Shown here piece after piece: positions 53,479 to 56,214 of a DNA stretch of 64,000 nucleotides. The DNA lies in sequence record PQ511150.1. The stretch is one strand, 5' to 3'. Every line of letters begins with the position of its first letter. Position 1 is the stretch's first letter. The stretch comes from Escherichia phage NHEP29. Made by a program: the position numbers and the translations under genes. Under the pieces are notes generated by a model that worked only from the letters and a program-made list of their open reading frames with translations, did not search any database and was not told the DNA's origin.

Positions 53479-53494
53479 GGGAGCCGAAGCTCCC
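53479..53494 (-). terminator. UUCG hairpin downstream of gene 52
   Basis: GGGAGC-cgaa-GCTCCC. Confidence 0.5.
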
Positions 53495-53570
53495 TAATCA
53501 TGTTTGTCTAACCAATACAGCCAAATCACTAGTGCAGCTATTGCACCGAGAAATCCTAAGGCTAGGGCAC

Positions 53571-54896
53571 TCAAAGTGCCTCCAAGTCTTTAGTGTACTC
53601 TGTCACAACATCAGTAGACTTCCAATACTCATTTTCTTCTTTCTTAGCTTTAGCTTCTTCTGCCAGTTTACGTGCTTCGTCGGAAGTGATATGGAAGATG
53701 TTAAGACCTACCAGTTTATCGACATGTTCTTTATACATTTCGATTTGTGCTAGCTCTTCAGTCAAAGCTTTACGAGTCTTGCCCTGAATCACAATTTCAC
53801 CACTGATAACTTTTTTGATGAAGTGTGCCTTAGCAAAAGCAAGTTTAAATGCTTTTTCAGATTCAAGGATTTTGTTATCAATACGTTTCTGAACGTAAGT
53901 CTTACGGACTTCAACAAAATCTTTGATTAAGTCCACTACGTTATCGTAGACCGCTAATTTACCCTTTTCATTAATCACTGTGATGTTTTGTGAACGACGT
54001 TCGATGAGACTAAAATCTTTCATGATTTTTTCATGACGTAGCTCTTCATCGTCAGGAAGCGAGTACTCTTTACGGAACTTCACCTTAAACCCAAAACCGT
54101 GTTCGCCACAATCATCTTCCCATGAGATTAGACCTTTGTCTTCCAACGGGTCAAGAACCTTACTCACATACGTTTCACGGTCGAATTTATATGGGATTTC
54201 AGTTATCTGCATTTGAGTGCGAGATGTGAACTTATATGTTCCGTGAATCTCATAACGCCCATCAACTTCATGTACTTCACCACGGAATTCCGGGAATTCA
54301 ACTTTTGGCTTAGTGACATTTTTACCTTGAAGAGCTTGTAATACGGCCTTTTTGACTGATTTAAAACTATGAGGCAGAATATTTGTTGCGTAACCGGTTG
54401 CAATACCAGAGACGCCATTCAAAAGAACTGTCGGAATAATAGGAAGATAGAATTTTGGTGGAATGTGTTCTTTATCTTCATGAGCTGGAGCATATTCAGT
54501 ATCTTTATATACGTTATAGAAATTTTTACTTACACGAGCAAAAATATAACGAGATGCTGCAGCTTTTTGGACTGTTCGAGAACCAAAGTTGCCTTGGCCG
54601 TCTAACAGTGGATAGTTGTTGTTCCATGTGTTAGCCATCAATGCACCTGCATCTTGTGCAGAAGATTCACCATGGTGATAACCTAAATCTGCAACACCGC
54701 CTGCAATTGACGCAAGTTTATGAAATTTTTCTTTATTACCACGAGCCAAATCTAACGCACGATGAACCACAAAACGTTGAACCGGTTTAAATCCATCAAT
54801 CATGTTTGGGATTGCACGGTTTTCAACGGTGTACATCGCATATGCTAATGCTTCGTTATCAATAATACTTTTTAGATTACGAGAATTCAATTGCAT
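53571..54896 (-). CDS. 52: DNA topoisomerase II medium subunit gp52
   Basis: 441 aa; near identical to T4 gp52 as recalled (NEALAYAMYTVENRAIPNMIDGFKPVQRF). Confidence 0.9.
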   Translation of the reverse strand: MQLNSRNLKSIIDNEALAYAMYTVENRAIPNMIDGFKPVQRFVVHRALDLARGNKEKFHKLASIAGGVADLGYHHGESSAQDAGALMANTWNNNYPLLDGQGNFGSRTVQKAAASRYIFARVSKNFYNVYKDTEYAPAHEDKEHIPPKFYLPIIPTVLLNGVSGIATGYATNILPHSFKSVKKAVLQALQGKNVTKPKVEFPEFRGEVHEVDGRYEIHGTYKFTSRTQMQITEIPYKFDRETYVSKVLDPLEDKGLISWEDDCGEHGFGFKVKFRKEYSLPDDEELRHEKIMKDFSLIERRSQNITVINEKGKLAVYDNVVDLIKDFVEVRKTYVQKRIDNKILESEKAFKLAFAKAHFIKKVISGEIVIQGKTRKALTEELAQIEMYKEHVDKLVGLNIFHITSDEARKLAEEAKAKKEENEYWKSTDVVTEYTKDLEAL

Positions 54897-54900
54897 ATTT

Positions 54901-55041
54901 TCACCATATTAATGAACGAATAGTCATTATAACATCTGAAATGAAAAGCACTACTTGGATTAGTCCAAACATCACACCATAGTACAGAACCGTAAGCAAC
55001 AACAAGAGCCCGAAGGCTCCTGCTAAGATTTTCTTAATCAT
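54901..55041 (-). CDS. small hydrophobic membrane peptide (46 aa), not in ORF track
   Basis: Hand-translated MIKKILAGAFGLLLLLTVLYYGVMFGLIQVVLFISDVIMTIRSLIW; start overlaps upstream stop (TAATG); T4 52.1/ac position. Confidence 0.4.
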   Translation of the reverse strand: MIKKILAGAFGLLLLLTVLYYGVMFGLIQVVLFISDVIMTIRSLIW

Positions 55042-55187
55042 TACTCGCCTTTTAATACGTTAAGAAGAGCTAAGACCGCTAATGTACCTTGTGACACCGC
55101 CTGTTGAAATACCGTTGTTTCGCCTGTAACTAAAGTGTTAACGAATAAAAACGACCAACACAGCAATGCAATAATCCATGCTACCAT
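55041..55187 (-). CDS. small hydrophobic membrane peptide (48 aa), not in ORF track
   Basis: Hand-translated MVAWIIALLCWSFLFVNTLVTGETTVFQQAVSQGTLAVLALLNVLKGE; RBS GAGGT upstream. Confidence 0.4.
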   Translation of the reverse strand: MVAWIIALLCWSFLFVNTLVTGETTVFQQAVSQGTLAVLALLNVLKGE

Positions 55188-55239
55188 TTTAATTACCTCA
55201 AAAATAAATTAAAGGCCCAACTTAATAGGCCCGTATAAA

Positions 55240-55686
55240 TTAGTAACTCTGCAGAATGAATTTGAAATTATCTGCCAGAAGACGGTTCATTTCAGTGAGT
55301 GTTTGATATTCTGATGTATGATTGCGAGTGAATGCCAGAGCCAATTGTCCTTTACCATAACCAGTAGTCAGTGGTTTCATGTTCTTAGCTGCAACAAAGA
55401 TTACATCATATTCAATATTGTTAGTGCCCATAGTACGGGCTAGTTGCGAACGGCCTTGACGAATGTGAGAAAGAATTGCATCCAACCCTTGTTTAGAACG
55501 TTGACGTCCTACAAAGAATCGTGCTGCTACTTGTCGCCAATCAGATGAACCTTTAACAAAGAAGTAAAAACCTTCACGAGAACGAAACTCTTTAGAAACT
55601 TCGGAACCGTATTCGCCATTACGAACTACTGCAACAACTTCACCGCCAACTGCCAGAAGGTCTTTACGAGTTAAATATTTGGACAT
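55240..55686 (-). CDS. ndd: nucleoid disruption protein Ndd
   Basis: 148 aa; C-terminal half close to T4 Ndd as recalled ([56 protein letters not shown]). Confidence 0.85.
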
Positions 55687-55730
55687 GCTAATTTCCTCAA
55701 TTGATTAATGTTTTTGTAATCCATGAGAGC

Positions 55731-55760
55731 ATTATACTCTGCTCTCAAGAGTTTGTACAA
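55731..55760 (-). promoter_or_regulatory. early promoter for ndd with palindrome around -10
   Basis: Minus strand TATAAT flanked by GAGAGC/GCTCTC; -35-like TTGTAC variant. Confidence 0.5.
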
Positions 55761-55762
55761 TT

Positions 55763-55963
55763 TTATTCTGCTATATCAGAACGTTCAAAAAGCTCTTCAA
55801 CAGTTAAACATTCTATGTCATCCTCAATAAAGAATCGAGTCCAACATGTTGGGGCGATGCAGTTATGAGTTTGTCCAGGTATAGAAGCTACACGAATAAG
55901 CTGCTGGCCATTATTCAGGACAAATTTTTCACCAATTTCAACATCTTTAAAAAGCTTAGCCAT
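55763..55963 (-). CDS. hypothetical protein (66 aa)
   Basis: ORF preceded by early promoter. Confidence 0.4.
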   Translation of the reverse strand: MAKLFKDVEIGEKFVLNNGQQLIRVASIPGQTHNCIAPTCWTRFFIEDDIECLTVEELFERSDIAE

Positions 55964-55992
55964 TTTGTGTTCCTCGTGTTTTGATAGGACTA

Positions 55993-56021
55993 CTATACCA
56001 TAATCCTACCTTAATGTAAAC
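55993..56021 (-). promoter_or_regulatory. early promoter
   Basis: Minus strand GTTTAC + 17 + GTATAG upstream of the 66-aa gene. Confidence 0.5.
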
Positions 56022-56023
56022 AA

Positions 56024-56131
56024 TTAAATTACATTAAAATATGTTAAAGCCAACCATGTTCCAGTGAACGAACATGCGATGTAAAAACCTGTATCGCAAA
56101 TTGTTCTTAGTACAATAAGTGCATTTTTCAT
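56024..56131 (-). CDS. tiny hydrophobic peptide (35 aa), not in ORF track
   Basis: Hand-translated MKNALIVLRTICDTGFYIACSFTGTWLALTYFNVI; ATGA overlap with upstream peptide ORF. Confidence 0.3.
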   Translation of the reverse strand: MKNALIVLRTICDTGFYIACSFTGTWLALTYFNVI

Positions 56132-56214
56132 AAGTACCTCAATACAATTGAAAATATTATACAAATCATAGGGATACTAAGCAACCATATTCCGATCCAC
56201 ATTTTAGAGCTCAT
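56128..56214 (-). CDS. tiny hydrophobic peptide (28 aa), not in ORF track
   Basis: Hand-translated MSSKMWIGIWLLSIPMICIIFSIVLRYL; ATGA overlap with stop of the 87-aa gene. Confidence 0.3.
   Translation of the reverse strand: MSSKMWIGIWLLSIPMICIIFSIVLRYL

Follow-up and report, generated by a model that had tools for sequence, protein, structure and literature searches.

Around gene 52 and ndd of Escherichia phage NHEP29 (PQ511150.1) lie five open reading frames (ORFs) of 26 to 48 amino acids (aa), and they raise the question whether frames as short as these are genes at all and, if they are, what their products may do during infection. They had been found by hand translation in an earlier note on this DNA, and we followed them up in the window, that is, the whole stretch of 64,000 nucleotides (nt) that was analysed. 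Judged by sequence comparison, all five appear to be real conserved genes, the counterparts of T4 ac, 52.1, ndd.6, ndd.5 and motA.1, and the observation is a correct and largely ordinary one. They were found on the minus strand with the positions, lengths and junctions described for them (ORF and overlap check), and the 26-aa sequence that had been quoted proved exact; they are indeed missing from the ORF track, the only reason being its cut-off of 60 aa. The earlier note was right that T4 carries ac and 52.1 near gene 52, as the T4 record confirms, and did not recognise that p48 is Ac, that p46 is gp52.1, that p28 is Ndd.6 and that p35 and p26 stand in the slots of ndd.5 and motA.1. The five features are:

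56128..56214, minus strand: p28, 28 aa, orthologue of T4 Ndd.6 (alignment and PHROG)
56024..56131 (from ATG), minus strand: p35, 35-aa peptide, positional equivalent of T4 ndd.5 (PHROG and position)
55041..55187, minus strand: p48, 48 aa, orthologue of T4 Ac, the acridine-sensitivity membrane protein (alignment and PHROG)
54901..55041, minus strand: p46, 46 aa, orthologue of T4 gp52.1, DUF7396 (alignment, PHROG and Pfam)
53494..53574, minus strand: p26, predicted hydrophobic peptide of 26 aa with a single pass, MSALALGFLGAIAALVIWLYWLDKHD, in the position of T4 motA.1 (ORF and Shine-Dalgarno site)

Identity of the five ORFs

Pairwise alignment against shuffled controls ties p46 to T4 gp52.1 (z=23, both 46 aa), p28 to Ndd.6 (z=11.2) and p48 to Ac (score 68, z=9.2), and the genes agree with those of T4 in their order and overlaps. 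p48 also matches phrog_2501 over its full length (E=3.2e-22) and is identical to Ac of RB69 (AAP76166.1). Like T4 Ac, it lies between ndd and 52.1 and overlaps 52.1, here by a TAATG in which p48 and p46 share 1 nt, and it has one predicted transmembrane (TM) segment and an amphipathic C-terminal helix with the conserved motif VF.QA..QG that is common to both proteins; it differs in being 48 aa long instead of 51 aa and in its diverged N-terminal helix. T4 also has stp between ndd and ac, where the window has a spacer of 52 nt.

For p46 there are matches to phrog_3595 (2.9e-23) and, over residues 1-46 of 46, to PF24129 (DUF7396; 80.9 bits against a cut-off of 27). The peptide has an N-terminal KK, one predicted TM segment and a conserved C-terminal VVLFISDVIM...W; 25 of the last 29 residues, and about 70% overall, are the same as in T4 gp52.1, and its stop lies 4 nt ahead of the gene 52 ATG, as in T4, with the promoter P52 (see below) inside the frame and no substantive difference between the two. 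All enterobacterial T4-like lineages sampled have a gp52.1 homologue whose frame closes 4-27 nt upstream of gene 52, and Acinetobacter-type loci have a different hydrophobic ORF of 52-68 aa upstream of gene 52.

The 28 residues of p28 share with Ndd.6 the length, the MSS start and the IP.IC motif, and match phrog_8851 (3.7e-11); the family motif MSSK.W..IW..IP.IC is kept in Tequatro-, Dhaka- and Karamvirus-type loci. One hydrophobic helix spans residues 5-25 of 28, with no lipobox or cleavable signal peptide evident, and the database label 'outer membrane protein' for Ndd.6 is a prediction that fits a single hydrophobic helix badly. p35, which can also be read as a TTG-extended version of 46 aa, matches phrog_18561, a Mosigvirus-specific family (5.9e-27), and shows no similarity to T4 Ndd.5 in pairwise alignment (z=0.8); tblastn with T4 Ndd.5 over the collected loci gives matches in Tequatrovirus loci only. 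What p35 has in common with Ndd.5 is its place, since in T4 a peptide beginning MK is ATGA-coupled behind ndd.6 just as p35 is behind p28. ATGA overlaps join the stop of p87, an 87-aa gene, to the start of p28 and the stop of p28 to the start of p35; p87 is missing in T4, and ndd.2 to ndd.4 of T4 are absent here.

Conservation and annotation

About 150 genomes of Mosigvirus (RB69-like T-even phages), e.g. NHEP11, ST0, HX01 and JS09, agree with the window at 97-99% identity over 3.5 kb around these frames, and the sequence places the source phage as an RB69-like T-even phage of Mosigvirus. Frame conservation was scored on Mosigvirus copies of the region from GenBank, IMG/VR and metagenomes, with 13 in the main comparison and, for p26, at most 15 loci including the window. 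All five frames are kept in these relatives with in-frame indels only, one of 3 nt making p35 36 aa long in most relatives and 35 aa in the others. The conservation in related phages on which the earlier proposal had been made to depend was thus borne out, with a ratio of nonsynonymous to synonymous polymorphism (pN/pS) of 0.10-0.29. The pooled values are 0.10 for p48, 0.13 for p28, 0.28 for p46, 0.29 for p35 and 0.23-0.29 for p26, with gene 52 at 0.04 and ndd at 0.07. The existence, homology, conservation and arrangement of the five, and the promoter and terminator motifs given below, are established.

All five exact peptides are already deposited as NCBI proteins, and therefore this is no discovery of hidden genes. 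Annotation is uneven: the HX01 RefSeq record has all five, that of phage 55 four and the RB69 record only 52.1 and ac. The exact sequences of p46 and of p35 occur in many Mosigvirus records and that of p28 in 2 NCBI records, and exact p26 is found in one only, the HX01 RefSeq protein YP_010247053.1. The NHEP11 record is without p26 and p28. It also holds two odd coding sequences (L001 576..704 and 2874..2963, i.e. about 53375..53503 and 55671..55760 of the window), the one crossing the terminator and promoter after gene 52 and the other the ndd promoter, both of them probably artefacts of the gene caller.

The ORF after gene 52

p26 is the member for which the question of coding is sharpest. 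Its TTG start lies in cTTTGA and overlaps the TGA stop of gene 52 (TTGA), with GGAGG at 53583..53579, 4 nt upstream of the TTG; this junction, like the ATGA and TAATG overlaps of the other frames, is as it had been described. We found no family for p26 in PHROG, Pfam or NCBIfam and no similarity to T4 peptides in pairwise alignment. A tblastn search against the phage collection gave no match, for which low-complexity filtering of the short hydrophobic query is the probable cause, so that it is not evidence of absence; a hydrophobic query of 26 aa cannot reach remote relatives at database scale. The ORF ends in a hairpin whose 5′ arm includes the AG of its stop codon:

53478..53495, minus strand: intrinsic terminator hairpin AGGGAGC-UUCG-GCUCCCU with a U-rich tract (hairpin search)

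The stem is conserved among relatives, with a fold of -14.4 kcal/mol in one of them (L031). In some relatives the loop reads TTCG and in others the reverse complement CGAA, with an unchanged stem, as though by an inversion of the loop.

That p26 is no gene but a chance frame in the short spacer between gene 52 and this terminator, seemingly conserved through recent Mosigvirus kinship, we take to be unlikely. In favour of this, the frame is only about 81 nt long with a TTG start and without a family match, it is annotated in just 1 of the 10 inspected GenBank records that carry it, chance small hydrophobic ORFs are common in the window (see below), and the GGAGG is encoded by the conserved C-terminal codons D-L-E of gp52, being present also in lineages that have no downstream ORF (L019, L021 and L022). 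Against this, the frame is intact in 14 of the 15 Mosigvirus loci and free of indels over its 81 nt, while several begin directly past the terminator, and only 4 of the 11 interior segregating substitutions are nonsynonymous (L4I, G10S, D23V and K24N) where 7.6 are expected from random placement with the same transition/transversion mix (P=0.017). In LF82-2 gene 52 has CTA in place of CTT as its last codon; gp52 is unaffected by this, and p26 has ATG where the window has TTG. The terminator follows gene 52 directly in lineages without an ORF, so that no spacer is needed, and five other sequence classes in the same slot are hydrophobic and under purifying selection. Pattern scans for extra Mosigvirus alleles of p26 added 2 viral and 3 metagenome loci, and because so few were found the selection test remains small. 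The coding evidence is therefore moderate, short of decisive, and on sequence comparison p26 is a probable TTG-initiated gene, rarely annotated, with positional analogues and no sequence relatives outside Mosigvirus.

A promoter inside p46

The tight overlaps support the earlier suggestion that the small frames are translationally coupled to their neighbours, but between p46 and gene 52 coupling is not the sole route of expression, as a middle promoter of MotA type lies within p46 itself:

54926..54950, minus strand: MotA-box middle promoter inside the 3′ half of p46, TGCTT-14 nt-TATAAT, predicted start about 54919 (motif and comparison with T4 P52)

Its TGCTT is at 54950..54946 and its TATAAT at 54931..54926, and T4 shows the identical arrangement at 165258..165234. 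The start of the MotA-dependent middle promoter P52 of T4 is printed as 65227 (Table 1 of PMC2988021), which we read as 165227, 7 nt after the T4 -10 element. From this promoter inside p46, middle-mode expression of gene 52 and p26 is possible independently of p48 and p46. Two other TGCTT motifs, at 56183 and 54998, were considered as middle promoters and rejected on spacing.

The motif is present with identical spacing in 25 of the 25 loci that have a 52.1 homologue, and the TG of its first codon is retained even where the residue varies among V, L and M; because it is kept in all 25 in spite of such changes, the most conserved DUF7396 residues (V-L...V-I-M) may be under a joint constraint of protein and promoter, as this sequence pattern suggests. 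Could the promoter then account for all of the conservation, with the peptide itself functionless? That the most conserved codons of p46 (NTG CTT ... GTT ATN RTR) coincide exactly with the MotA box core and the P52 -10, and that the TG stays fixed as its amino acid shifts, would fit. We consider this quite unlikely nonetheless, as each of the 25 loci keeps the 52.1 frame open over 44-46 aa, two conserved features, the YYG turn and the terminal ...S(L/I)(I/V)W, lie outside the promoter, the homologues' N-terminal half remains hydrophobic despite its sequence change, and the pN/pS of p46 within Mosigvirus is 0.28.

The slot after gene 52 in other genera

We surveyed this position in 38 IMG/VR loci with a gp52 47-100% identical to that of the window. 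In most enterobacterial T4-like lineages a hydrophobic ORF starts on the gene 52 stop or 7 nt before it, and several lineages have no such ORF, the terminator there standing directly after gene 52. The classes of post-gene 52 ORF are:

49 aa: T4 MotA.1 and Karamvirus-type relatives
34 aa: Dhakavirus type
26 aa: Mosigvirus (p26)
45/46 aa: two further lineages
23 aa: one further lineage
77 aa: one further lineage

T4 MotA.1 and p26 have in common a start on the gene 52 stop, the first residues MS, a hydrophobic character and, behind the ORF, a terminator with an early promoter, but MotA.1 has 49 aa and an ATG start (ATGA overlap) where p26 has 26 aa and TTG, and the two have no detectable similarity. 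The grand average of hydropathy (GRAVY) is 1.2-2.7 in all six classes, a value of 1.2 being reached by 5.5-8% of random small ORFs, and pN/pS is below 1 in every class, down to 0.07 in the Dhakavirus type. Pairwise alignment detects a relationship in two cases only, that of the T4 with the Karamvirus type and that of the 45-aa with the 46-aa ORFs, and tblastn with T4 MotA.1 gives matches only in Tequatro- and Karamvirus-type loci. In a distant lineage (L035, a contig of 159,801 bp, from 4073 onward) the gene 52 stop forms an ATGA with the start of an ORF of 187 aa, which is no micropeptide, and in two Karamvirus-type loci (L012 and L014, past about 4960) another hydrophobic stretch, read by eye, apparently follows the MotA.1 homologue.

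The slot can change its occupant. In pEK20 (L044 3020..3165) and HY126 (H102), both Mosigvirus, the 34-aa Dhakavirus peptide MSLGVEF...HFKK replaces p26 and brings its own terminator, GGAACC-UUCG-GGUUCC. This segment is about 98% identical to Dhakavirus DNA, which indicates a recent cassette swap between genera, and since p26 is replaced together with its terminator in both genomes, peptide and terminator move as a unit. Such an exchange fits the promoter early stem-loop (PeSL) model of modular exchange in the hyperplastic regions of T4-type phages (PMC2839356, PMC4122927). It is conceivable, if speculative and rather improbable, that the position after gene 52 is a conserved functional slot, in which no particular sequence is needed but a short membrane helix, transcribed from P52 together with the topoisomerase subunit and coupled to it in translation.

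Another view would make the act of translating this ORF matter and not the peptide, a ribosome at the p26 stop covering the 5′ arm of the terminator and so allowing more read-through into the motA region. The p26 stop codon does overlap the stem, and in the Dhakavirus, T4-type, 23-aa and 45/46-aa classes 0-11 nt separate the stop from the hairpin, but a role in cis alone would not need all six classes to be strongly hydrophobic, nor is it favoured by the amino-acid sequence being conserved within each class, by motA and the 71-aa ORF ahead of it each having their own early promoter, or by the same layout of gene 52, terminator and promoter in lineages without the ORF. We judge this terminator-antagonising role weak and highly improbable.

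It has also to be considered that gp52.1 and the post-gene 52 peptide might be made stoichiometrically with gp52 as membrane partners that tether the topoisomerase or the early replication complex to the inner membrane. The genes are suitably placed: all enterobacterial T4-like lineages have a small hydrophobic ORF just upstream of gene 52 (Acinetobacter-type loci have one of another kind), in most lineages a further one overlaps the gene 52 stop, and the P52 middle transcript is common to p26 and gene 52; mutations in the topoisomerase genes 39 and 60, like those in ac, are tied to acriflavine resistance in what is cited from Miller 2003 (in 10.1101/2025.06.30.662393). We regard it as very unlikely all the same: active T4/T6 topoisomerase II has been reconstituted and its structure solved from gp39, gp60 and gp52 alone, without small subunits (PMC11461880), T4 deletions lacking 52.1 are viable (PMC6071114, PMC9712115), the downstream ORF is missing in several lineages, and the downstream peptide is swapped between genera while gp52 remains of the Mosigvirus type.

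Membrane prediction

The membrane test used the summed insertion energy per segment. One segment with negative summed energy was obtained in each of p26, p46, p48 and p28. The description of all five as hydrophobic holds for these, but p35 is only marginal, its insertion energy being +2.2 to +4.1 and its best 18-residue Kyte-Doolittle window 1.43. Hydrophobicity of the five ORFs by itself is not beyond chance, as the window has 687 ORFs of 20-60 aa and 31 of them, mostly inside larger genes, reach the same hydrophobicity. What is beyond chance is the combination, in which the ORFs occupy gaps on the coding strand that hold no other gene, relatives preserve the frames, and homologues or positional equivalents exist in other genera; the case for five genes thus rests on position and conservation.

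Transcription units and proposed function

The minus strand carries every gene between 51 and 58 kb, the five tiny ORFs included, in the transcription order denB, p87, p28, p35, ndd.1, ndd, p48, p46, gene 52, p26, terminator, 71-aa ORF and motA. The elements that bear on the expression of the five are:

56501..56529, minus strand: early promoter TTTACA-17-TATAGT with TG, ahead of p87 (motif)
56211..56474, minus strand: p87, hydrophilic protein of 87 aa, phrog_2390, opening the coupled unit p87-p28-p35 (ORF and PHROG)
55992..56020, minus strand: early promoter TTTACA-17-TATAGT with TG, immediately behind the stop of p35, predicted to drive ndd.1 (motif)
55240..55686, minus strand: ndd, nucleoid disruption protein, 148 aa (ORF and comparison with relatives)
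53571..54896, minus strand: gene 52, medium subunit of DNA topoisomerase II, 441 aa (ORF and comparison with relatives)

A sigma-70-like site, TGTACA-17-TATAAT without TG, precedes ndd. In a first unit, the early promoter at about 56515 would drive p87, p28 (Ndd.6) and p35, joined by their ATGA overlaps; in a second unit downstream, p48 (Ac), p46 (gp52.1), gene 52 and p26 would be read head-to-tail up to the UUCG-loop terminator, gene 52 and p26 being additionally transcribed in middle mode from the MotA-dependent promoter within p46. Each peptide would be translated from its own Shine-Dalgarno-like site or by ribosomes terminating on the upstream gene, and for p26 we infer initiation at its TTG. 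Each may then insert into the host inner membrane by a single hydrophobic helix (doubtful for p35) and bind and modulate host envelope proteins early in infection, for which Ac is the only precedent. Small inner-membrane regulators of bacteria work in just such a way: AcrZ, which binds AcrB, and MgrB, MgtS and others are single helices of less than 50 aa that tune larger membrane proteins. The likeness is in the working mode proposed for the phage peptides, with AcrB, the partner of AcrZ, being the pump that Ac is proposed to block; the phage peptides have no significant similarity to AcrZ (z from -0.8 to 1.8).

For Ac there are data from T4. Deletions and point mutants of ac resist acriflavine, the substitution G38R among them, and Ac expressed from a plasmid sensitises E. 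coli to acriflavine and ampicillin (10.1101/2025.06.30.662393). The ac product makes cells accumulate acridines. It is proposed to insert into the inner membrane and obstruct AcrAB-TolC (10.1101/2025.06.30.662393; echoed in PMC13250531). The glycine equivalent to T4 Gly38 is kept in p48 (SQG/AQG in the alignment). Ac is the sole member with a known phenotype, and by analogy the p48 allele may have an acridine effect too. In the literature we found no functional study of motA.1, ndd.5, ndd.6 or gp52.1 and no ribosome-profiling study of T4 small proteins.

We hold it to be probable that the deletable ndd-52-motA region has in these five ORFs conserved accessory genes of an ordinary kind, whose products act as early inner-membrane modulators of host envelope proteins. 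They are counted as accessory because the T4 deletion saDelta9, from 52.1 through denB, keeps about 50% of wild-type phage production (PMC6071114) and T4 GT7 lacks 52.1 through rIIB (PMC9712115); saDelta9 also loses the infection-induced stimulation of phosphatidylglycerol synthesis (PMC6071114). The earlier phrase 'membrane-active modulators' accordingly stands in that most of the peptides are predicted membrane peptides, while the modulator part is putative, with experimental support for Ac only.

Several points weigh against this reading. The case for all five peptides in this phage rests on sequence, and the productivity of saDelta9 means that the peptides are dispensable in laboratory hosts. 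p26 and p35 have no detectable homologue outside Mosigvirus by PHROG, tblastn or pairwise alignment, p35 has no confident TM segment by summed insertion energy, and part of the conservation of p46 could stem from the embedded promoter and not from the protein. The selection test on p26 had 11 substitutions to draw on, from genomes that are close relatives, and TTG is an uncommon start codon. The link of Ac to AcrAB-TolC, finally, is a proposal made in a preprint.

Stp and other neighbouring elements

Further features of the region are:

55763..55963, minus strand: p66, orthologue of T4 Ndd.1, hydrophilic and outside the five (z=20.6; phrog_2183)
55213..55232, minus strand: weak hairpin with T-rich tail in the 52-nt ndd-ac spacer, possible partial terminator (7 pairs, 4 G-C; not relied on)
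53425..53452, minus strand: T4-type early promoter TTTACA-16-TATTAT with TG, predicted to drive the 71-aa ORF (motif)
53172..53387, minus strand: 71-aa ORF, phrog_6200 (ORF and PHROG)
52436..53068, minus strand: motA (ORF)

The pair of p87 and ndd.6 is also seen in T4-like relatives (L006-L008, 66-68% identity). That a Stp-like peptide is missing although pseT and rnlA are retained, as the earlier note had it, is upheld for the window: tblastn found no Stp homologue there (best E=0.14, inside other genes) and pseT (25613..26509) and rnlA (28466..29587) are present. None of the Mosigvirus loci collected has Stp, and T4 and Dhakavirus-type phages carry stp in the ndd-ac spacer. T4 Stp has its 26 aa and its neighbourhood in common with p26, but it is a basic, hydrophilic peptide encoded between ndd and ac, whereas p26 is a predicted hydrophobic helix after gene 52. 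Stp is 95-100% identical as protein between T4 (L004 5006..5086) and Dhakavirus-type loci (L009, L010, L032, L036 and L042, about 3114..3188); Ndd has diverged between the two types, each being about 58-62% identical to the Ndd of the window.

After p26 the stem-loop terminator at 53478..53495 is followed by the early promoter at 53452..53425, and the two together match the published consensus of a T4-type PeSL, a stem-loop with TTTACW-N17-TAYWAT directly behind it, associated with indels between relatives (PMC4122927). The 71-aa ORF stands between two near-identical copies of stem-loop, early promoter and Shine-Dalgarno site (about 53060..53130 and 53380..53450; window 53069..53495). It is present in 6 of 14 Mosigvirus loci, and in the other 8 the promoter leads straight into motA; by this arrangement it is a textbook PeSL-flanked indel.

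Significance

The discovery value is little, with the T4 counterparts annotated since the T4 genome paper and the exact peptides in GenBank, although most Mosigvirus annotations miss p26. Only the recurrent slot and the promoter within 52.1 might be mildly new to a specialist. As the conserved core of DUF7396 doubles as the MotA-dependent promoter of gene 52, it should not be taken as a purely protein-level signal. For mechanism, Ac is the sole entry point, through the proposed blockade of the efflux pump. If the slot reading is true, p26 or its analogues and gp52.1 would be membrane partners of the replication/topoisomerase machinery, or else fast-evolving effectors directed at a host membrane target. 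In T4-like phages the gene 52 stop is a recurrent launch site for membrane micropeptides unrelated in sequence, and these form a natural set for asking what their role may be.

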